Part shown: positions 14,870-36,435 of the stretch, in pieces | How positions within the stretch are numbered: position 1 is the stretch's first letter | Layout: each line of letters opens with the position of its first letter | DNA from: an uncultured Candidatus Saccharibacteria bacterium | GTDB taxonomy: Bacteria > Patescibacteriota > Minisyncoccia > Sungbacterales > SURF-37 | Reading direction: 5' to 3' | NCBI GenBank assembly: GCA_964395285.1 | Contig: CAYNAP010000002.1 | Location: 1 to 37,102, forward strand | Length of the DNA stretch: 37,102 nucleotides | The notes under the pieces: generated by a model | What the model was told of the DNA's origin: nothing | The model's input: the letters and a program-made list of their open reading frames with translations, nothing else | The model's database searches: none | Position numbers and translations under genes: made by a program

Positions 14870-16261
14870 ATGAGTTTTCTTATCATTGTTAAAAAAATTG
14901 TTCCGCTTGGAATTTTGGAAGCCGTCCGTCCTTTTTATCATTGGCTTCTTGCGGCACTGGCCGCGTCAGTTTACGGGCGGCCTTCGCGAAGGTTGATAGT
15001 CATCGGCGTGACCGGCACCAACGGCAAAACCACGGTGGTCCACCTCTTGCATGAGATATTCCGGGCAGCGGGGTTTAGAGTCGGGTCGTCTTCATCGCTG
15101 CGGTTTAAAATCAATGATACGGAAGAGAAAAACCTGCTTAAGATGACAATGCCCGGCCGCTTCCGGCTGCAGAAGTTTTTAGCCCGATGCCGCGACTCCG
15201 GATGCCGCTTTGCTATTATCGAGGTGACTTCCGAAGGCATAAGGCAATCGCGCCACCGGTTTATAAATTTCAAGGCCGCCGTGCTTACCAACATCCGGCC
15301 GGAGCATATTGAGGCGCACGGCAGTTTTGATAACTACCGCGGGGCCAAAATGGAGCTTTTTAAAAAACTGCCGCGATCGGGTTTCGCTGTTCTTAATAAA
15401 GAAGACGAGTCGTCGAAACTTATTGCCGAAGACACTAAAGCCGAAACTATTTGGTATTCGCCTTCATTCATCGAGGTAAAGCATATTGGCCATCCGGTCC
15501 ACGTTAACGCTGCTTACCCTTCGCGCACGCTATTTGAGGTAGAGAACGTTTTTATGGAAATGAATCTCGGCGGCGATTTTAACGTGATGAATGCGCTTGC
15601 CGCTATCGCCGCAGCTATGGCTTTTAATGTTTCACTTTCGGCAGCGGCACAAGCATTAGGCCAGTTCAAGGGTGTTGCCGGGCGGATGGAGTATATCCAG
15701 AATAAGCCGTTTGCAGTGGTGGTGGATTACGCGCATACGCCGGATGCGCTGGAAAGCGTCTATGGGACGCTTTCCAGTGCAAGCTCAAAGCTCAAAGCTT
15801 CCGCCTACGCCGAGGCTTCCGCCGCCGGTAAACCTTTGGCGGACAAGTCGGCGGGCAGGCAAAATTCAAAACTAATCTGCGTTCTTGGCGCGGCCGGAGG
15901 AGGGCGCGACAAGTGGAAACGTCCGGAGATGGGCAAAGTCGCTGCCAACTTTTGCAGAGAGGTTATTTTGACCAGCGAGGATCCAGACGACGAAAATCCT
16001 CAGCGGATTATGGAAGAGATTGAAAGAGGATTTTCGTCAAATTCCAAATTCCAAATTCCAAATTCCAAAAAAGTCGTAGATCGGCGGGAAGCAATTTGTT
16101 CCGCGTTGCAGGATGCTAAACCCGGTGATACAGTCATCATAACCGGCATGGGCGCCCAGCCGTGGTTTATCGAGAAAGGCAGAAAGATACCGTGGGATGA
16201 CAGGGAAGTTGTTAAGGAAGAACTAGTTAAATTAGCGGATGTTCCTACGAATTACGAATAA
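14870..16261 (+). CDS. murE: UDP-N-acetylmuramoyl-tripeptide synthetase (MurE-type Mur ligase)
   Basis: Contains GVTGTNGKTT, DYAHTPDALE and GAAGGGRDKWKRPEMG. The start was taken at ATG 14870 (MSFLIIVKK). Confidence 0.8.
   Translation: MSFLIIVKKIVPLGILEAVRPFYHWLLAALAASVYGRPSRRLIVIGVTGTNGKTTVVHLLHEIFRAAGFRVGSSSSLRFKINDTEEKNLLKMTMPGRFRLQKFLARCRDSGCRFAIIEVTSEGIRQSRHRFINFKAAVLTNIRPEHIEAHGSFDNYRGAKMELFKKLPRSGFAVLNKEDESSKLIAEDTKAETIWYSPSFIEVKHIGHPVHVNAAYPSRTLFEVENVFMEMNLGGDFNVMNALAAIAAAMAFNVSLSAAAQALGQFKGVAGRMEYIQNKPFAVVVDYAHTPDALESVYGTLSSASSKLKASAYAEASAAGKPLADKSAGRQNSKLICVLGAAGGGRDKWKRPEMGKVAANFCREVILTSEDPDDENPQRIMEEIERGFSSNSKFQIPNSKKVVDRREAICSALQDAKPGDTVIITGMGAQPWFIEKGRKIPWDDREVVKEELVKLADVPTNYE
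16038..16072 (+). repeat. Heptamer microsatellite (CAAATTC x4 plus a degenerate copy) inside murE
   Basis: Sequence caaattc caaattc caaattc caaattc caaaaaa, translated as SNSKFQIPNSKK. Confidence 0.9.
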
Positions 16262-21310: not shown

Positions 21311-22120
21311 ATGCGCAATGAAGTCGTTTTGGATCTTGAAACCAAATCTGCGCCGCGCGATTGGGGGGTGCGCGACGAATTAAAAACGCTCGGTGTGTCG
21401 GTCGTCGGCGTTTGGTTTTCGGCGGACGACAGTTTTAAGGTTTTTCGCGAAACGGAGCTCGGCGAACTTGCCGGGCGACTAAAAAAAGCCGATCGGCTTA
21501 TCGGTTTTGCCGTAAGAAAGTTCGACATCCCGGTTCTTCAGCCGTATATAAACTTCGATTTAGACGAGATTCCGGTTCTTGATATGTTTGAGGATATAAG
21601 CGCGACTTTGGGTCACCGCATGTCGCTGGCTAGTTTGGCCAAGGCGACATTGGGGCAGAATAAGAATGGCCATGGCCTTGAAGCCATCACTTGGTACAAG
21701 AACGGGGAGTGGGAGAAGCTTGAGGAGTATTGTCTCAAGGACGTGCGTATTACCCGCGATTTATATCACTACGGGAAAAAGTTTGGCCATCTTTTATTCG
21801 AGTCTTTGATTGATCAAAAGACTATTTCGGTGCCGGTTTCATGGGGCTTGCCGGATGAAGCGGAGATCAGGGCGCTCATCGACAAAGCCCGGGCCGAAAA
21901 CAAAGTTTTGGAGATTGACTATGTGTCGCGCGAGAACTCGGGCGAGGGTTTTCTTAAAACCCGCAGAATTGAAATTCAGGCGGTGAAAGGGGATGATATT
22001 GAGGCTTACGATCATCTGCGCCAAGATGTGCGCAGTTTCCGCATCGGGCGGATAGTCAGCGCAAAAGTACTGGATGATGCGGTAAAGCCAAGACCGGTGG
22101 TTCAATCACTTTTCCGTTAA
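21311..22120 (+). CDS. RNase H-fold (DEDD-like, PolB-exo/YprB-like) exonuclease domain fused to a WYL-like C-terminal domain
   Basis: The N-terminal part has VLDLET, FAVRKFDIPVL and YCLKDVRITRDLY. The C-terminal part, LEIDYVSRENSGEGFLKTRRIEIQAV..IEAYDHLRQDVRSFRIGRIVSAKVL, resembles the WYL beta-barrel pattern. Confidence 0.5.
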   Translation: MRNEVVLDLETKSAPRDWGVRDELKTLGVSVVGVWFSADDSFKVFRETELGELAGRLKKADRLIGFAVRKFDIPVLQPYINFDLDEIPVLDMFEDISATLGHRMSLASLAKATLGQNKNGHGLEAITWYKNGEWEKLEEYCLKDVRITRDLYHYGKKFGHLLFESLIDQKTISVPVSWGLPDEAEIRALIDKARAENKVLEIDYVSRENSGEGFLKTRRIEIQAVKGDDIEAYDHLRQDVRSFRIGRIVSAKVLDDAVKPRPVVQSLFR

Positions 22121-22139: not shown

Positions 22140-22631
22140 ATGAGCGGGGACACGCAATTCCACAGCTGGTCAAAAGGAACTCTTACCCTCACGCGGGTTT
22201 TCGACGAAATTATAAGTTATATAAAAAGTCAGCCGGAGAGGTCCTATCAAATAATCATCGGCTCGGATTCTGCAGCGCGGAGTCCGGTATCTTTGATTAC
22301 GGCAGTTACCATCAGGAGAGTAGGCAATGGTGCGGTGCATTTTTGGGTTGAATCGGATAAGAAGATATTCCACACTTTTCGCGACCGCATTTATGAAGAG
22401 GCGATGCAATCAATAACTTTGGCTCAAGAGTTTCGCTCGGGGTTGCGCGAGAAGTTTGGCGAGGACTTTTTTTGGAACGATAAAATTCAGGTGCATATTG
22501 ATGTGGGCGAAAACGGCCCAACGCGTGAGATGATCGATCAGGTAGTAGGCATGGTCAAGGGCTTCGGTTTTCAGGCAGTGATAAAGCCGGGGTCGTTCGG
22601 GGCTTCACAAGTGGCGGATCGCCATACCTAG
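22140..22631 (+). CDS. YkuK/DUF458 family RNase H-like protein
   Basis: FHSWSKGTLTLTRVFDEIISYIKSQPERSYQIIIGSDS matches my recollection of the YkuK N-terminus. Confidence 0.6.
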   Translation: MSGDTQFHSWSKGTLTLTRVFDEIISYIKSQPERSYQIIIGSDSAARSPVSLITAVTIRRVGNGAVHFWVESDKKIFHTFRDRIYEEAMQSITLAQEFRSGLREKFGEDFFWNDKIQVHIDVGENGPTREMIDQVVGMVKGFGFQAVIKPGSFGASQVADRHT

Positions 22632-22704
22632 GTAGAATGAATAAGCGGGCCTGCCCCGTTAGAAATGGAGTTTCTAATGGGGTGGCCGATACACACATAA
22701 GAAG

Positions 22705-22767
22705 GCCAAAAGCCAAAAGTTAAAAGCCAAAAGTTAAAAGGCAAAAGTTAAAAGGCAAAAGGCAAAA
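22705..22767 (+). repeat. Nine tandem GNNAAAA heptamers
   Basis: Sequence gccaaaa gccaaaa gttaaaa gccaaaa gttaaaa ggcaaaa gttaaaa ggcaaaa ggcaaaa. Confidence 0.9.
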
Positions 22768-22774
22768 CTTTGGA

Positions 22775-22810
22775 AGCCAAACGCTCCGATACTCCTCGGA
22801 GCGTTTGGCT
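22775..22810. repeat. Perfect 15-bp hairpin
   Basis: agccaaacgctccga / tcggagcgtttggct with loop tactcc. Confidence 0.8.
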
Positions 22811-22932
22811 GTATATTACTTCTATCTATGTATTATTTTCATAATTCCGGAAATGGATACGATCGTATTTATTTCCGGATATTTTAATTTGCGAACTGTT
22901 ACATCTGTGTTATTGTTGATTGATCGATTGAT

Positions 22933-22961
22933 TTGACAAATCATTTTTTGGAGTGTATAAT
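22933..22961 (+). promoter_or_regulatory. Exact consensus sigma-70 promoter (TTGACA, 17-nt spacer, TATAAT)
   Basis: TTGACA is at 22933-22938 and TATAAT at 22956-22961. The spacer was counted as 17 nt, and the upstream DNA is AT-rich. Confidence 0.7.
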
Positions 22962-22967
22962 AGTTAA

Positions 22968-23505
22968 TAGTATTGAAAAACTGTCAGTTTTTATGGCTTT
23001 TTCTCCCCAAACATGGGGCTTTGAAAAGGGTTTTCGACCCTATGGGCGAGCCCGGAGCAGACCCTCCTCTGCCACGGGCTTTAGCCCTCCTCGGAAACCC
23101 CCGGCTATATGCCTAAAAGGCCCCATATTTGGGGAGAAAAGCAATCTCGGGCCGTGACGGCCCGGGTCTGCGGCTGGCGGCGCTTTCTAGCTTACGCCGT
23201 TCGGCCGCTAAACGCCGGCGGTGAAAGAAATACCGGCGGCGTGACAATAGGGGAGCGCGGGTTTCATAGATTGATTCTTCCGCGCTCCTCCACCCTTTGA
23301 GGTTTCTTATTCTGATTTGCCCTGTTATCATCAAAAACCATCGAGATAGATTAATGGAAGAATTATGGTTTGAGAAACTTGATATAGTTAGCAGTTAAAT
23401 AACTGTGGTAGCAAGGGTTCAATTCGATAGGTGATCTCAAAGGATGGAGGGAAGGCAGTGGATGGCAACTGAACTCCGAGCTTGGCTCGGAAAGGAGGAG
23501 CGGCC
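22968..23505 (+). ncRNA. Candidate structured RNA or long structured leader (unclassified)
   Basis: It lies downstream of the consensus promoter. It has a series of GC-rich helices (listed in the findings) and no convincing ORF. The ends are not determined. Confidence 0.35.
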
Positions 23506-23778
23506 ATGGCGCGCGTGTTAAAGCGGGGAGAGGGACTAACGCTGGGAGAAGTGCGGGAGGCGACGGATGGATTCCTTGCTTCTTTCGTCTTTGGTGAGAG
23601 AAGCCCCCAGTTTATGGAGGATCTCCGCCTTCTTGCAGAAATCGGGGCCGCAGTCTGCGAAGGGATGCATCTCTCGCCGGAGTTGGGTCTGTTTTTATCC
23701 TCGGAGACTATTCTGCCCCATCAGGCAATGATTAAGTACCTGGAATGGGATGCGAGGCTGGAAGCACGCCCCGAGTAG
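23506..23778 (+). CDS. Orphan small protein (90 aa)
   Basis: GGAGG (23494-23498) lies 7 nt before ATG 23506. The composition is not low-complexity, and an intrinsic terminator follows. No family recognised. Confidence 0.4.
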   Translation: MARVLKRGEGLTLGEVREATDGFLASFVFGERSPQFMEDLRLLAEIGAAVCEGMHLSPELGLFLSSETILPHQAMIKYLEWDARLEARPE

Positions 23779-23792
23779 CGGGCGAATGGTAG

Positions 23793-23837
23793 TCTCGCCG
23801 GGCGCGAGGGCTGGTTCGCGTCGGCGAGAAAGTTTTT
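23793..23837 (+). terminator. Intrinsic terminator
   Basis: tctcgccg (23793-23800) pairs with cggcgaga (23822-23829). An inner cgcga/tcgcg helix is present, followed by aag and ttttt (23833-23837). Confidence 0.6.
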
Positions 23838-23877
23838 GTCTTGAGGAGCGCCTGCTAAAGCATTGCTTGTGCTCCTC

Positions 23878-23953
23878 CCACCTTCCAAGATTCCATAAGA
23901 TCCTAGCACCTTTAAAAAAACTGGTTTGAAACTTATGGAATCTTAGAAGGTGG
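23878..23953. repeat. 22-bp inverted repeat with a 32-nt loop
   Basis: ccaccttccaagattccataag pairs with cttatggaatcttagaaggtgg, with one mismatch at C23886/A23945. Confidence 0.8.
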
Positions 23954-23960
23954 TGTTGGT

Positions 23961-23986
23961 AAAACCCCGTTTTAGTACGGGGTTTT
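23961..23986. terminator. Terminator-like hairpin flanked by A and T runs
   Basis: aaaaccccgt / acggggtttt with loop tttagt. Confidence 0.5.
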
Positions 23987-23990
23987 AAAG

Positions 23991-24019
23991 TTGAATGCCG
24001 CATGAGCTTATGATAGATT
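23991..24019 (+). promoter_or_regulatory. Possible promoter for tRNA-Arg
   Basis: TTGAAT (23991-23996), a 17-nt spacer, then TAGATT (24014-24019). The tRNA starts 11 nt later. Confidence 0.3.
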
Positions 24020-24029
24020 GTTTTTACTT

Positions 24030-24101
24030 GTCCCCATAGCTCAATGGATAGAGCGCAAGCCTCCGGAGCTTGAAATCGGGGTTCGAATCCTCGTGGGGAC
24101 G
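24030..24101 (+). tRNA. tRNA-Arg (anticodon CCG), CCA not encoded
   Basis: Manual cloverleaf: acceptor GTCCCCA/TGGGGAC, D stem GCTC/GAGC, anticodon stem CAAGC/GCTTG, loop CTCCGGA, T stem CGGGG/CCTCG, T loop TTCGAAT. Total length 72 nt. Confidence 0.9.
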
Positions 24102-24150
24102 TAAATAGGTAATATTTCCCGTGGGGTTTTTTGTTTGGTAGAATCGTCTT

Positions 24151-25551
24151 ATGTCTAAAGTTTCGCTTTCATTTCACGGCGCGGCGCGGGAGGTGACTGG
24201 CGCTTGCCATTTGCTGGAAATTGAGGGGCCCTTCGACTCGCCCCGAGCCGCGTCGAGGGGCTCGCTCGGGGCGACGAGAACGCTTCGCGTTCTCGTCGAC
24301 TGCGGCATGATACAAGGCGGGGATGAGTATGATTCTCGGAATTTTGAGCCATTTTCTTTCTCCGCGGCCGATATAGACGCGGCGATGATAACCCATGGCC
24401 ACATTGATCATATCGGCCGCTTACCCAAGCTCTATCACGAAGGATTCCGCGGGCCGGTTTACTCTACGGCGCCGACGCGGGATCTCGCTGAAATTTTGCT
24501 TGAAGACATGTTGGGGCTTTTCCACCATGCTGGACACGAAAGTTTTTTCTCCGCGGATGATCTTGACGGGGTGATGAAGCTTTTCAAAGCGGTTGAGTAT
24601 AACCAACGGGTGGAACTGGATAAAAATGTTTCTTTCAAACTTTTGCAAGCTGGGCATATTTTAGGATCCTCTTTTGTACGCATTGAGGCCGATGGCAAAG
24701 TTTTTCTTTTCAGCGGGGACATCGGCAACTCGCCAAGCGCGCTTCTTCCGCCGCGCGCGTCCGTGCCCGATACCAATGTTTTAGTGGTGGAGTCAACCTA
24801 CGGCAATAAAATGCATAAGCACGTCAGCGACCGGCGGCTGATGCTTGAGCGCTCGATTGAAGACGTGGCTACGCGCGGCGGCGTTTTGATGCTGCCGGTA
24901 TTCGCCACCGAGCGAACCCAGGAAATTCTTTTCGAGATGAATCAAATGATTCAGCATAAGCGCGTGCCTGAAATGCCGGTTTTTCTCGATTCGCCCCTCG
25001 CGACCAAAGCTACGGTAATTTTTGCCAAGTACTCAAGTTATTACAGCGACGAGGTGCAGAGGCTTTATAGCGAGCACCGCCACCTCTTCGATTTTAAAAA
25101 TCTAAAGTTTACGGTTTCGGTTGAGGAGTCAAAAGCCATCAACGATGTCCGCTCGCCAAAAGTAATATTGGCTGGATCGGGCATGTCTTCCGGCGGGCGG
25201 ATATTGCATCACGAAAGGCGCTATCTTCAGGATCCGGCGAGTATCCTCGTCATTACCGGCTACCAGGCGGCGGGGTCTCTGGGGCGACGGCTTTTGGACA
25301 AGGCTGGTGAAGTGAGAATTTACGGCGATGTTGTGCCGGTGCGAGCCGAGATAAGAATCATTGACGGCTACTCGGCTCATGCCGACGAGGAACAACTTTT
25401 GCAGTTTGTGGACGAGATGCGCGATAACCTTGAGCGGGTTTTTGTGGTCCAAGGCGAGCCAGCGGCGGCGCTGAATTTCCAGCAATTGATCCAGGATCGT
25501 ATGGGCGTTCAAGCTCATGCGCCGATTTACGGAGAAAGTTTTAGTTTATAA
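24151..25551 (+). CDS. Beta-CASP family metallo-beta-lactamase-fold RNase (CPSF/RNase J-like)
   Basis: Contains THGHIDHIGRLP and HILGS. The C-terminal beta-CASP and RNA-specificity region has GYSAHADEEQLL. Confidence 0.8.
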   Translation: MSKVSLSFHGAAREVTGACHLLEIEGPFDSPRAASRGSLGATRTLRVLVDCGMIQGGDEYDSRNFEPFSFSAADIDAAMITHGHIDHIGRLPKLYHEGFRGPVYSTAPTRDLAEILLEDMLGLFHHAGHESFFSADDLDGVMKLFKAVEYNQRVELDKNVSFKLLQAGHILGSSFVRIEADGKVFLFSGDIGNSPSALLPPRASVPDTNVLVVESTYGNKMHKHVSDRRLMLERSIEDVATRGGVLMLPVFATERTQEILFEMNQMIQHKRVPEMPVFLDSPLATKATVIFAKYSSYYSDEVQRLYSEHRHLFDFKNLKFTVSVEESKAINDVRSPKVILAGSGMSSGGRILHHERRYLQDPASILVITGYQAAGSLGRRLLDKAGEVRIYGDVVPVRAEIRIIDGYSAHADEEQLLQFVDEMRDNLERVFVVQGEPAAALNFQQLIQDRMGVQAHAPIYGESFSL

Positions 25552-29369: not shown

Positions 29370-31100
29370 ATGATCAATCAGGAACTCTCCAAAATTTTCT
29401 ATGAAATGGCCCTCCTGCTCGATATGCAGGAAGTGGCGTTTAAGCCGCGGGCTTTTGAGAAAGCCTCGCTTTCGATCGGATCGATGGAGGAAGACCTCCG
29501 CGATATTTATAAGCGCGGAGGGCTCAAGGCCTTGGAACAAATTCCCGATATCGGCAAAGGCATTGCCGAGCGAATCGAGGAATATATCAAGCGCGGGCAT
29601 GTTAAGGATTATGCGGCCATGAAGAGAAAAGTGCCGGTTGACTTGGAAGGCATTAAAAGGATTGAGGGTATCGGGCCGAAGACGATTAAACTTTTGTGGC
29701 AGAAATTAAAAATTCGCACGGTTGCCGATTTGGAAAAAGCGGCGCGGACCGGAAAAGTCCGCGGCATCCCCGGGCTTGGCGCGAAAACCGAGGAAAATAT
29801 TTTGAAGGGCGTTGAGTTTGTCAAAAAATCGGGCGGGCGGTTTTTGCTCGGCGATATACACGGTTTGATAAAAGAAATTGAAGCGCGGCTTGAAAAGTTG
29901 CCGGGAGTTGAGCGGGCGCTCGCGGCCGGATCGTTCCGGCGGATGAAAGAAACGGTGGGGGATGCCGACATGCTGGTTATTTCCTCCAAGCCCCAGCCAG
30001 TGATGGATTATTTTATCCACATGCCCGAAGTGGCCCACATTTACGCTCACGGCGCGACTAAATCAATGGTTAAACTCAAAAACGGCCTCGACGTTGATTT
30101 GCGCGTGGTCGAAAAAGAATCGTTTGGCGCCGCACTCAACTACTTTACCGGATCGAAATATCACAACGTGGCTTTGCGCGAAATAGCCATTAAAAAGGGC
30201 CTAAAACTTAACGAATACGGACTTTACAAGGGTAAAAAGCAAGTCGCCGGGCGCACCGAGGAGGATTTATACAAAGCACTAGGGCTTAAGTATATTGAGC
30301 CGGAGTTGCGGGAGAATACCGGCGAAATAGAGGCGGCGCGGGAGGGGAAGTTGCCCAAAGACTTAATAGGCTATAACGATCTTCGCGGCGATCTTCAAAT
30401 CCAAACCGACTGGAGCGACGGCGCAAATTCGATAGAAGAAATGGTCAAGATTGCTATTGAAGTCGGACTTCAATATATAGCGATAACCGATCACACGAGG
30501 TCCTTGGCCATGACCGGCGGCGCGGATGAGAAAAAGTTGGAGAGGCAGATGGCGGCGATTGACCAAATCAACTCAAAAGTCAAAAGTCAAAAGTCAAAAT
30601 TTCGGGTGCTAAAGGGAGCAGAAGTCAATATTTTACCGAGCGGCAAATTGGATATTGACGATAAGACACTCGCTAAGTTGGATTGCGTGGGCGCGGCGGT
30701 GCACTCCAATTTTAAAATGTCAAAAAGCGAGATGACTAAGCGCATTATAAGAGCGATGGAGAATCCCCATATTGATATTTTGTTTCATCCCACCGGCCGG
30801 ATCATCAACCGCCGCGCGCCTTACGAAGTTGACATGGATGAGATTATAAAGGCAGCTAAGCGCACCGGGACGATTCTCGAGATTGACGCTTCGCCGGAGC
30901 GGCTGGATATTAAGGACGAATATGTGAGGAAGTGCGTTCGCACCGGAGTTAAGATGGTTGTCGACTCCGATGCTCATTCGCTTGGCGGCTATCAGTTTTT
31001 AAAGTTCGGCATCGCCCAGGCGCGAAGAGGGTGGGCGGAGAGGAAAGACGTTTTGAATACTAAGCCGTTAAAAGATTTGCTAAAGTCTTTAAAAGGATGA
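29370..31100 (+). CDS. polX: Family X DNA polymerase with a C-terminal PHP domain
   Basis: HhH motifs IPDIGKGIAERI, IEGIGPKTIKLL and IPGLGAKTEENI. Pol-beta NTase motif GSFRRMKETVGDADMLV. PHP motifs ITDHT and VDSDAHS. Confidence 0.85.
   Translation: MINQELSKIFYEMALLLDMQEVAFKPRAFEKASLSIGSMEEDLRDIYKRGGLKALEQIPDIGKGIAERIEEYIKRGHVKDYAAMKRKVPVDLEGIKRIEGIGPKTIKLLWQKLKIRTVADLEKAARTGKVRGIPGLGAKTEENILKGVEFVKKSGGRFLLGDIHGLIKEIEARLEKLPGVERALAAGSFRRMKETVGDADMLVISSKPQPVMDYFIHMPEVAHIYAHGATKSMVKLKNGLDVDLRVVEKESFGAALNYFTGSKYHNVALREIAIKKGLKLNEYGLYKGKKQVAGRTEEDLYKALGLKYIEPELRENTGEIEAAREGKLPKDLIGYNDLRGDLQIQTDWSDGANSIEEMVKIAIEVGLQYIAITDHTRSLAMTGGADEKKLERQMAAIDQINSKVKSQKSKFRVLKGAEVNILPSGKLDIDDKTLAKLDCVGAAVHSNFKMSKSEMTKRIIRAMENPHIDILFHPTGRIINRRAPYEVDMDEIIKAAKRTGTILEIDASPERLDIKDEYVRKCVRTGVKMVVDSDAHSLGGYQFLKFGIAQARRGWAERKDVLNTKPLKDLLKSLKG
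30574..30601 (+). repeat. Heptamer microsatellite (CAAAAGT x3 plus CAAAATT) inside polX
   Basis: Sequence caaaagt caaaagt caaaagt caaaatt, translated within NSKVKSQKSKFR. This is the same heptamer as the arms around the four-helix-bundle gene. Confidence 0.9.
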
Positions 31101-35060: not shown

Positions 35061-35085
35061 GAGATGGCGGGAGTTGAACCCGCGT
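35061..35085. repeat. 25-bp duplicate of the tmRNA 3' end (att-like)
   Basis: gagatggcgggagttgaacccgcgt is identical to 36045-36069. Confidence 0.9.
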
Positions 35086-35124: not shown

Positions 35125-36000
35125 TTATTTTTCTTTGTAGTATTTAACGAAGGCAGGCGTGTCTTTTTCCTTAGGCATTCTATTTATTTGTACCAGCACT
35201 TTTTTATAGTTATCCAAGAAACCGTAAAAAATGTTGTTGTAACGATCCGTCTTTGTGCGACAAGCCCAAAAATCGTTATAAACTTCGGTTATATCAAAAG
35301 CATCATCGGGGTCGCATTTTTTCTCGACTGTCTGGACTAGCGGTTTAGTGAGAGTGTAAAGCAGAAACATATACTGCTCTTTGGAGTTAGTCGGATTTGA
35401 ATACCCTCCTCCGCCAGAAAGATCAATGTCTTGCGTGTACCAATCCGGTTTGAGAAAGTGCGGGTTCGCGATACCGAAACTTGTTGTTCCAGGTGGGAAC
35501 GCCTCTTTACCCGAAGCGTTTCGCAACGTTTTTATAATGGTGTTTATAGCTAGCCGCGGGTCAATAAAATTTCTTTTGACTTGGTAGGCGCCAGCGAGGA
35601 CGAAAACGACCCAAACGAAAGCGAGCACAAGCTTGAGTTTTAACAGCATCCGAGTATCGCCTCCAGCTCTTTTTCTCAAAAAAGAAGCAGCGAGTCCCCA
35701 ATACATCAGGAACAAGACGATAACCGCTGGCACTCCAGTGATGGCCCAGAAACCGCAGCCTATTTCTTTGCATTTGAGCTGGGAAACAATCGACCACGGT
35801 GAAATGATTACCCACGGCATCGTTCCTTTTGCCGCGGTCAGGGCTATTTCTGAAAATGGTATTTCTTTTATGGCATTAACACTTGTTGCTTCATTATGGA
35901 ACTTATCTAAATCGATGGGATAAAGATCCCACGGAAAAATAAAGTATGTTACCGCAAAGAAGAGGAGAGTAATTAGAAACGACGTAAAAAAAGTTTTCAT
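35125..36000 (-). CDS. Hypothetical membrane protein (low GC), the only gene between the tmRNA-end repeats
   Basis: 291-aa ORF with several TM segments. A sampled line, 35881-35940, has 21/60 G+C. No family recognised. Confidence 0.55.
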   Translation of the reverse strand: MKTFFTSFLITLLFFAVTYFIFPWDLYPIDLDKFHNEATSVNAIKEIPFSEIALTAAKGTMPWVIISPWSIVSQLKCKEIGCGFWAITGVPAVIVLFLMYWGLAASFLRKRAGGDTRMLLKLKLVLAFVWVVFVLAGAYQVKRNFIDPRLAINTIIKTLRNASGKEAFPPGTTSFGIANPHFLKPDWYTQDIDLSGGGGYSNPTNSKEQYMFLLYTLTKPLVQTVEKKCDPDDAFDITEVYNDFWACRTKTDRYNNIFYGFLDNYKKVLVQINRMPKEKDTPAFVKYYKEK

Positions 36001-36039: not shown

Positions 36040-36435
36040 TGGTGGAGATGGCGGGAGTTGAACCCGCGTCCAGATCGGTCGAGATTCAAATTTGTACAGG
36101 AATAGTTTGATTGATTTGAAACCAGAAACTTAAATCAAACTAAATATTTCTGATTTTTTCCGGTCTTGGTCGAGCGTCTTACCGGAGTTAGCGCCCCGAG
36201 CCCAAATGGTTGGCACCGCGTTTATCCCTATGGGCGCGGAATAAGGCGATGGCTTACGCTTAAATTTAAACGAAAGCGGGAGCAAAGGAATTAACTCCGA
36301 AAGCCGAAGCTAAAGCTGACTTTGCTTTTGAGAATAAGTTTGCACTTATTTGGTTGCGAGTTTTTAACGAGGTGGCTCAAGCGCCCTCGTCCTGAACTTG
36401 AATCTGTCAATGATCTGTCGAGGCCTGTCATCCCC
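36040..36435 (-). ncRNA. ssrA: tmRNA (SsrA), one-piece, CCA encoded
   Basis: On the minus strand the 5' end reads GGGGAUGACAGGCCUCGAC. The 3' end reads GACGCGGGUUCAACUCCCGCCAUCUCCACCA. The acceptor pairing GGGGAUG/CAUCUCC includes the G3-U pair. A candidate tag reading frame is present, and smpB lies immediately upstream. Confidence 0.9.

Follow-up and report, generated by a model that had tools for sequence, protein, structure and literature searches.

What kind of element lies behind the consensus promoter that stands between a YkuK-like gene and a tRNA-Arg gene in the genome of an uncultured Candidatus Saccharibacteria bacterium (GTDB lineage Patescibacteriota; Minisyncoccia; Sungbacterales; SURF-37)? 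The stretch in question, positions 1 to 37,102 of contig CAYNAP010000002.1 (assembly GCA_964395285.1) and here called the window, had been read from its letters alone, and this original prediction left two answers for the GC-rich, hairpin-dense segment, namely an unusually long structured leader controlling an orphan protein of 90 amino acids, or an independent structured RNA followed by a small gene. Comparison with related genomes confirmed that the structured RNA is real and conserved and that the open reading frame (ORF) is real, but the latter is not the fixed partner of the RNA. Neither a dedicated leader nor a plain RNA with an adjacent gene describes the locus, because relatives hold other small ORFs, several of them, or none between the same modules. 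What is well supported is a conserved, lineage-specific structured RNA unit of modular build, into which an exchangeable cassette for a small protein is embedded. The unit forms a self-contained predicted transcription unit of approximately 1.05 kb on the plus strand, extending from the promoter at 22933 to a terminator at 23986, and, judged by its distribution among related sequences, it is restricted to a clade of Candidatus Sungbacteria, which belong to the Parcubacteria within the Candidate Phyla Radiation (CPR).

Promoter, fold and conserved hairpins of the unit

The promoter is present exactly as originally described. A sigma-70 consensus sequence, TTGACA-17-TATAAT, occupies 22933..22961 on the plus strand with 12 of 12 positions matching and a predicted transcription start near 22968, and nowhere else in the 37-kb window does a relaxed near-consensus promoter pattern match. 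In 10 further relatives the unit likewise begins with an equivalent promoter, found by pattern scan in L003, L005, L007, L012, L063, L065, L066, L071 and L072 and by eye in L074; there is exactly one near-consensus promoter per locus, and it always stands at the head of the unit. The G+C content amounts to 59.6% in 22996-23292, compared to 35.7% in the upstream spacer and 49.8% in the whole window, and the count of 43 G or C among 60 nucleotides given before for 23161-23220 is exact. Minimum free energy (MFE) folding of 22968-23300 yielded -177 kcal/mol on the plus strand (z = -10.8 against 100 dinucleotide shuffles), and each of the helices originally drawn was found in this fold. The minus strand of the same stretch reached -159.8 kcal/mol (z = -7.8, dinucleotide shuffles), i.e. 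the plus-strand fold is 17 kcal/mol more stable.

Loci for comparison were gathered via the YkuK-like protein, a member of the YkuK/DUF458 RNase H-like family encoded at 22140-22631, and via homologues of the 90-amino-acid protein (ORF90). The relatives of the YkuK-like protein come from metagenome-assembled genomes of Candidatus Sungbacteria / Sungiibacteriota, a Parcubacteria lineage of the CPR. The unit was found at the loci L003, L005, L007, L012, L063/64, L065, L066, L071, L072/73 and L074, of which L005 stems from the same organism as the essentially identical L011, while L062, L068-70, L008 and L009 lack the element. The covariation that had been proposed as a check was indeed found in these relatives, with compensatory changes in two kinds of helices, those of a 5' hairpin A and those of the tandem-hairpin modules further downstream.

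Hairpin A is a three-way-junction RNA at 22995..23144 on the plus strand, which is supported by a covariance model (R1), independent folds and compensatory changes. Its long closing stem A1 of about 25 bp (22996-23022 with 23117-23142), the second-longest inverted repeat of the window, is followed by an internal loop, by stem A2 (23028-23037 with 23091-23100) capped by the 6-nt loop CCCUCC, and by the small stem A3 (23103-23105 with 23111-23113). In the window the A2 loop harbors a 47-nt insertion (about 23042-23088) with its own hairpin showing a second CCCUCC (23062-23067), and in L065, L066 and L072 A3 is extended by approximately 140 nt; all such insertions are confined to helix tips. Model R1 scored 104 bits on the plus strand versus 36 on the minus strand; run with filters off it missed the insertion-bearing versions, in which the inserts were trimmed by hand. 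All eight versions fold independently to one architecture, each with a CCCUCC loop, and the loop sequence GACCCUCCUCGG is kept in seven of them, L005 showing two substitutions. In the hand-trimmed alignment of the eight sequences 96% of the cells are paired and 14 of 26 pairs display compensatory changes, versus 1-7 in slid controls, while an alignment of four sequences contains 9 pairs with changes on both sides versus 4.7 in shuffles. In L007 the whole A1 sequence has been replaced, yet it pairs over about 24 bp. One U·G pair of A1 is kept in seven of the eight genomes and is U-A in L007. The apical CCCUCC looks like an imitation of the anti-Shine-Dalgarno sequence of 16S rRNA, judged from the letters. 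A reading of the internal loop as k-turn was rejected by inspection, since the non-bulged strand does not carry the G·A/A·G signature.

The second conserved element is a module of two tandem hairpins, in which a short H1 with a GGAG...CUCC base and variable interior is followed after 0-2 nt by a 22-bp helix H2 and then by G-R-A-A. Copy D spans 23250..23452 on the plus strand (inverted repeat I10, duplex of -33.5 kcal/mol, H1 fold), with H1 at 23250-23291 (GGGGAGCGCGGG...CCGCGCUCCUCC) and H2 formed by 23293-23310 with 23427-23444, extendable to 23286/23452. Its H2 loop contains a 116-nt AT-rich insertion (23311-23426), because of which the corresponding covariance model, R2, gives it a low score of 13 bits; in L003 (70 bits) and L074 (41 bits) R2 finds a D-like module with a short loop of 4-14 nt. 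Copy E spans 23843..23953 on the plus strand (94.5 bits with R2 versus 45 on the minus strand), with H1 at 23843-23877 and H2 formed by 23878-23899 with 23932-23953. Its apical loop motif is AGCACCUUUAAAAAAACUGG, and the E-type copies across genomes share the motif AGCACCUU(U/A)(A/C)AA. Altogether, R2 finds 16-17 copies in 10 genomes. H1 is present in every module with a different inner sequence each time, the gap to H2 is 0-2 nt in all of them, and the terminal loops of H2 vary between 4 and 130 nt. Pairing of H2 across nine modules amounts to 92.8%, with both sides changed at 13 of the 22 pairs, compared to 1-5 pairs in slid controls. None of 500 shuffles reached the observed values for the percentage paired, for pairs or cells with both-side changes, or for the covariation score, and 4 of 500 did so for further pair types. 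Modules of the D type are closer to each other across genomes than to the E copy of their own genome; therefore, the duplication is old.

None of these structures corresponds to an RNA family in Rfam, which includes riboswitches, OLE, GOLLD, ROOL, HEARO and raiA; the original prediction had recognized no likeness to the consensus sequences of RNase P, SRP, 6S, tmRNA or riboswitches. At gathering score, Rfam reported for the whole window only the tRNA-Arg(CCG) at 24029-24102 and a tmRNA at 36040-36435, and a search of 22600-24150 at E<=10 returned chance-level rows only, mostly microRNA models on the E2 hairpin and all far below gathering. Rfam scans of seven relatives gave tRNAs only, and permissive scans of the L072 and L066 units gave nothing. 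Identities as RNase P RNA, signal recognition particle RNA or 6S RNA were rejected, since there was neither a model match nor conserved P4-like or GNAR-loop features. A description of non-coding RNAs (ncRNAs) of Sungbacteria was not found in the literature.

The original prediction had cautioned that the helices may be DNA-level repeats, palindromes being abundant throughout this genome. The notion that they are selfish or neutral palindromic DNA repeats without RNA function, similar to repetitive extragenic palindromic (REP) sequences or miniature inverted-repeat transposable elements (MITEs), draws on the REP-like palindromes and the in-frame, GC-rich palindromic inserts of this genome. However, R1 and R2 match only this locus, both within the 37-kb window and across some 140 kb flanking the unit in relatives, so that the modules lack the dispersed copies expected of REP or MITE families, and the 389 kb of unrelated GC-rich viral DNA picked by an H1-like pattern gave no R2 match either; the 49 viral matches to this loose H1 pattern are due to chance and served as negative control. 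The position of the hairpins is fixed relative to promoter and ORFs, and the REP-like palindromes of the window (family ACGAGGCCGGGCCTCGT, 5525-7260) represent a different sequence family. Moreover, the helices covary and display a strand-specific excess of G·U pairs, with 37 G·U versus 15 A·C, the latter corresponding to G·U on the opposite strand. The repeat explanation is largely refuted and we regard it as extremely improbable. The excess of G·U, the kept U·G pair in A1, the scores of R1 and R2, which are about twice as high on the plus strand as on the minus strand, the fold stability, and the conserved framing by promoter and terminator point to a conserved structure acting as plus-strand RNA, insofar as sequence comparison can tell; single-stranded DNA of that strand, folded in the same way, is a formally conceivable alternative. 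The placement of insertions at helix tips (A2 loop, A3 arm, H2 loops) resembles that in structure-constrained RNAs.

Regarding the palindromes themselves, six copies of ACGAGGCCGGGCCTCGT surround an IS200-like Y1 transposase gene (6513-7208, minus strand; PF01797, E = 6e-9). The region 5525-7260 shows a REP/RAYT-like arrangement (RAYT, REP-associated tyrosine transposase) and is the likely source of the abundant palindromes that the original prediction had remarked on. The beta-CASP gene at 24151-25551 carries GC-rich nested palindromes at 24225-24300, which are translated in frame as GPFDSPRAASRGSLGATRTLR between the conserved N-terminal nuclease motifs and look like a palindromic element inserted into the coding sequence.

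Middle domains and exchangeable cassettes

Between hairpin A and copy D the window contains a clade-specific variable part (V1) of three GC-rich hairpins on the plus strand, which appear in the MFE fold at 23146-23166, 23170-23207 and 23212-23242; L003 has counterparts homologous to each of the three, L012 and L074 to the third alone. In L065, L066 and L072 the place between hairpin A and the first tandem module is taken by a conserved GC-rich domain of 200-580 nt, or 200-280 nt at L065 6074-6346, L072 5140-5345 and L066 6250-6470, with long invariant stretches such as GGCGCCYGUGYGGYGCCKGGCAKGCGGAU, UCGCGGCUAAG and AAACSGGGACGA, and in L063, L005 and L071 by a different or more diverged domain. 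Gene callers found no gene in the middle domains, and the large domain has no Rfam match. It is absent in the window, L003, L012 and L074, and possibly constitutes the part of a larger ncRNA that carries its function.

In this regard an independent, trans-acting RNA has to be considered. Hairpin A, the middle part and the terminal module would then form an ncRNA core of about 0.7-1 kb in relatives, on whose strong promoter the ORFs are hitch-hikers; we regard this as possible but tentative. That the conserved loops of such an RNA bind a cellular partner, for example a protein, the 30S subunit or other mRNAs at their ribosome-binding sites, is a similarly tentative proposal. It is consistent with units that extend over approximately 0.6-1.1 kb with no called gene (L066) or only a 31-amino-acid ORF (L071), with the CCCUCC loop that stays invariant while the stems turn over, with the conserved E-type loop motif, with the long invariant single-stranded stretches of the large middle domain, and with the fact that the promoter of the unit is the strongest at each locus. 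However, in L007 hairpin A stands about 20 nt ahead of the Shine-Dalgarno (SD) sequence of an ORF, like an element of a 5' untranslated region. Furthermore, no part of the RNA is universal, since the middle domain is missing in the genomes mentioned above and hairpin A is missing in L063 and L071; the unit is absent from the syntenic site in close relatives, and no target can be named. Large ornate ncRNAs such as OLE (with oapA) or ROOL and GOLLD (near tRNAs) are comparable in that the relatives carry 0.7-1.1 kb of GC-rich, gene-free structured RNA with several domains near small membrane-protein ORFs and tRNAs, but there is no match in sequence or structure, the window copy lacks the large middle domain, and the ORFs are embedded and exchangeable here.

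Between D and E the window harbors a cassette composed of a small hairpin, a very strong SD sequence and ORF90; in general, a spacer separates the module from the cassette that follows it. Hairpin C (CCGAGC-UUG-GCUCGG) directly precedes the SD GGAGG (23494-23498), both together spanning 23475..23498 on the plus strand; its general form CCCGRGC-nnn-GCYCGGG, running into AGGAGG and the start codon, was found at seven of seven cassette ORFs of the window's clade with a covarying stem. The ORF itself (23506..23778, plus strand) is present as originally described, with GGAGG located 7 nt before its ATG. Compared to its homologues in L012 and L003, it shows dN/dS values (ratio of nonsynonymous to synonymous substitution rates) of 0.20-0.27, dominating third-position changes and indels in frame, which by this comparative evidence indicates that purifying selection acts on a real gene. 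The identity to the homologues in L012, L003 and L074 amounts to 54-67%. AlphaFold predicts a soluble helical protein with four helices (predicted local distance difference test score of 80.5). No family was found in Pfam, NCBIfam, PHROGs or PADLOC, and Foldseek searches against PDB and BFVD gave a best E of 0.38, with weak helix-turn-helix-like rows that are not significant. The family comprises only four members across 5.8 billion sequences and 1.84 billion cluster representatives, and an exhaustive profile search returned its own cluster only; thus ORF90 appears, as far as these searches reach, to be without relatives outside the window's clade.

The cassette ORFs of other units encode different small proteins, which are mostly membrane proteins and all orphans; the membrane proteins include those of L005 (61 amino acids), L063 (41), L065 (88) and L072 (123). 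In L066 and L071 there is no cassette ORF between the modules. A toxin-antitoxin or addiction module of type I or III, with a toxic small protein under the control of the structured RNA, could be suspected from the several cassettes coding for small membrane proteins, and anti-SD tracts inside 5' leaders are known from type I toxin mRNAs. We nevertheless judge it very improbable, because ORF90 is a predicted soluble four-helix protein of 90 amino acids, compared to the usual hydrophobic toxins of less than 60, no promoter-like site for an overlapping antisense RNA of type I occurs on the minus strand inside the unit, some units do not contain an ORF, and PADLOC gave no match. Unlike type III systems such as ToxIN, there are no tandem direct repeats upstream of the ORF, as Tandem Repeats Finder detected no tandem repeat in 22968-23990. 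For those relatives whose cassettes encode membrane proteins, a type I system is still conceivable.

The exchange of cassettes is best seen in L065 and L072, where promoter, hairpin A, middle domain, D and E are homologous but the ORFs unrelated; homology is lost from the last base of D-H2 and regained at the first base of E-H1. Furthermore, L074 carries three cassettes while its close relative L012 carries one. This situation resembles integron arrays, in which a strong upstream promoter (Pc) precedes promoterless small ORFs and the attC sites form imperfect hairpins, 60-200 nt long, whose stem is conserved and whose terminal loop varies, and in which close relatives hold different sets of cassettes delimited by the hairpins; here, 0-3 cassettes were found per unit. 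The tandem hairpins might accordingly be recombination sites, folded as single-stranded DNA and served by a recombinase encoded elsewhere, at a fixed promoter platform. Such an integron-like DNA system, which we consider improbable, is in line with one strong promoter ahead of 0-3 promoterless ORFs, with imperfect 22-bp hairpins bearing loops of 4-130 nt, and with unlike cassettes between near-identical modules whose edges coincide exactly with the breaks in homology, and G·T wobbles are tolerated in folded single-stranded DNA, too. Public assemblies also fragment at this place. The Logan contig L001, which stems from the same organism as the window (99.6% identical), ends at about 23297, no more than a few bases from the point where H1 and H2 of D meet; L002 ends at 22905, contigs L004 and L006 end at or shortly past the YkuK-like gene, and a scaffold gap with a duplication of 33 nt interrupts the L003 region, so that the extra cassette of L003 may be an assembly join. 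The clustered assembly breaks could reflect strain-level cassette variation.

However, neither a tyrosine nor a serine recombinase was found in the 37-kb window (Pfam, larger ORFs) or in the gene tables of the relatives, and the sole transposase is encoded by the IS200-like gene, which lies at a distance of 16 kb and has palindromes of another kind. The attC core sites (GTTRRRY / RYYYAAC) are absent: the module ends read 5' CGUCC... and ...GGGCGAAC 3', of which the reverse complement, GTTCGCC, deviates from the attC core at two of its four degenerate positions, and the copies in the window end with GGAUGG and GGUGGUG. D and E types group across genomes, so they are old rather than recently inserted, and the conserved framing from promoter to terminator as well as the SD-adjacent hairpins suit an RNA function. 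In contrast to integrons, the site consists of two tandem helices with a sequence shared between species, the array is preceded by a large leader of structured RNA, and the evidence favors selection at the RNA level.

The unit ends later than previously thought. The stem with a run of five T that had been assigned as its terminator (a 15-bp stem at 23793-23830 in the MFE fold and T5 at 23833-23837, plus strand) is present, but it is not the end, since module E and the likely terminator at 23961-23986 lie beyond. L012 and L074 have retained the stem without the U-run; therefore, this structure is probably not the main terminator. A terminator-like hairpin (AAAACCCCG...CGGGGUUUU; 23961..23986, plus strand, MFE fold) closes the unit; it was not passed by a simple terminator scan. 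In relatives, a terminator-like hairpin was recognized by eye between the next gene and whichever module or cassette comes last.

Proposed function

Which role could such a unit play? We regard it, with about even confidence, as a high-output expression platform for small accessory proteins, the RNA modules of which act in cis by delimiting, stabilising or processing segments and by tempering translation. In this model the strong consensus promoter would drive a modular RNA comprising hairpin A, the GC-rich middle part and the tandem modules that punctuate the cassettes. The long helices A1 and H2 (at least 20 bp) would delimit and stabilise the segments and are plausible processing sites for a double-strand-specific RNase, while exposed or releasable CCUCC tracts in the A2 loop and in the 3' strands of H1 would pair with the GGAGG of the cassettes and thereby temper translation. 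Transcription, processing and translational control are all inferred here.

The translational part of the model refers to the unusually strong ribosome-binding sites of the cassettes. The calculated SD duplex with a generic 16S 3' end amounts to -9 to -23 kcal/mol for 14 cassette ORFs versus a mean of -4.6 kcal/mol for the 33 other gene starts of the window. When the loop sequence GACCCUCCUCGG was used as probe, the cassette SDs gave -10 to -19 kcal/mol versus a mean of -4.3 for the same 33 genes. The unit contains four CCUCC tracts versus 1.0 expected, located in the A2 insertion loop, on the 3' side of A2, and in the 3' strands of both H1 hairpins, and such tracts could compete for the cassette SDs as anti-SD look-alikes. 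A conserved unpaired CCCUCC complementary to GGAGG is known from C-rich-loop RNAs such as small RNAs of the RsaE/RoxS type and toxin mRNA leaders; here, however, the loop sits on a three-way junction of about 100-250 nt at the 5' end of an mRNA-like unit and has no Rfam match.

With respect to processing, long local helices of at least 20 bp between the cistrons of a polycistronic RNA are also found as RNase III sites of phage T7 and as REP sequences or bacterial interspersed mosaic elements of operons. The required length is reached by A1 with about 25 bp and by H2 with 18-22 bp plus extensions. Unlike those elements, the helices found here are locus-specific with conserved loop motifs and a fixed two-helix design, and their cleavage is putative. 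The put antiterminator RNAs of phage HK022, which act in cis on RNA polymerase, consist of two stem-loops 0-2 nt apart in the nascent transcript, located downstream of a strong promoter and upstream of terminators. H1 and H2 share this spacing and placement, but their helices are much longer, several copies occur per unit, and there is no phage context.

Several points weigh against an expression platform acting in cis. Hairpin A is absent in L063 and L071, where promoter and terminal module are retained, and is therefore dispensable, and the close relatives L062 and L068 have no unit beside the YkuK-like gene at all. The complementarity between the A2 loop and the SDs is indistinguishable from ordinary strong SD/anti-SD pairing. 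Moreover, conserved loops (CCCUCC; AGCACCUUnnAA) are needless for mere stabiliser or processing helices and hint at a specific partner. The start site, the processing and the terminator of the unit are predictions from sequence, and the sample comprises about 10 genomes with 4-9 sequences per alignment. Several of these alignments were hand-trimmed around insertions, and MAFFT aligned the B-D region and the middle domain poorly owing to large loop insertions.

Besides these readings, it might be that the unit belongs to a kind of cassette platform without known precedent, in which a strongly promoted, ornate ncRNA of about 1 kb has a function of its own, residing in the anti-SD-like loop and, in relatives, the large middle domain, and a 3' slot between tandem-hairpin modules that swaps unrelated small-protein genes, possibly by a recombination that reads the hairpins; this we consider unlikely. 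That such a platform is integron-like without an integron integrase, or an RNA doubling as site of gene capture and expression, is likewise an unlikely but conceivable variant.

Genomic surroundings and meaning for the lineage

The ancestral gene order appears to be YkuK-like gene, unit, ABC (ATP-binding cassette) exporter, tRNA, one further gene and beta-CASP nuclease. The exporter gene is found between unit and tRNA in most relatives but not in the window, where tRNA-Arg(CCG) (24029..24102, plus strand; ARAGORN and Rfam) is the downstream neighbour outside the unit. Upstream lie a DUF192 gene, a gene for an RNase_H_2/WYL protein and the YkuK-like gene. Two genes of the RNase H fold stand directly upstream of the unit in every relative checked, in the window at 21311-22120 and 22140-22631, the former encoding an exonuclease-like protein of 269 amino acids with a WYL domain (PADLOC WYL, E = 6e-11). 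The YkuK-like neighbour was considered as a functional partner and set aside, since only an uncharacterised RNase H-like family is behind it and the link may be mere synteny. In metagenome contigs the exact pattern of the hairpin-A arm matched only L011, and in viral contigs neither this pattern nor that of the E2 arm was matched.

A 34-nt palindrome at 22846-22879 with the core TACGATCGTA is located 55-90 nt upstream of the -35 box of the unit, with a similar one at the equivalent place in L066 (5570-5605); possible roles are the binding of a regulator or the termination of the YkuK-like transcript. Purine-rich tandem repeats of the AAAAG type (period 7/14, GCCAAAA) stand directly after stop codons and before terminators at 22705-22767, 2497-2567, 16040-16069 and 30570-30599, and they also occur just past the stop codon of the YkuK-like gene in L065, L066, L071 and L072. 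Two further features lie elsewhere in the window. An exact 25-nt duplicate of the 3' end of the tmRNA gene was found about 1 kb from the gene (35061-35085 and 36045-36069). A 291-amino-acid ORF without Pfam family (35125-36000, minus strand) lies between the two copies, which resemble the duplicated attachment site (att) that arises when a small element inserts into ssrA. Finally, an exact 300-nt direct repeat (3249-3548 / 4356-4655) inside an ORF of 790 codons (Laminin_G_3 / DUF2341) is either a very recent internal duplication or an assembly artefact.

The bacteria of the Candidate Phyla Radiation have tiny genomes, and to our knowledge almost nothing has been known about their regulatory RNAs. 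The present study describes two covariation-supported RNA motifs new to Rfam, which are linked with the region's strongest promoter and with a slot whose orphan small proteins vary from strain to strain. If the modules act on RNA, they would provide a compact and reusable means of expressing small accessory proteins, possibly membrane or secreted factors of the episymbiotic lifestyle. If they act on DNA, they would represent a new gene-cassette system. In either case, the models R1 and R2 offer a handle on fast-evolving small-protein genes that are overlooked by gene callers and family databases.

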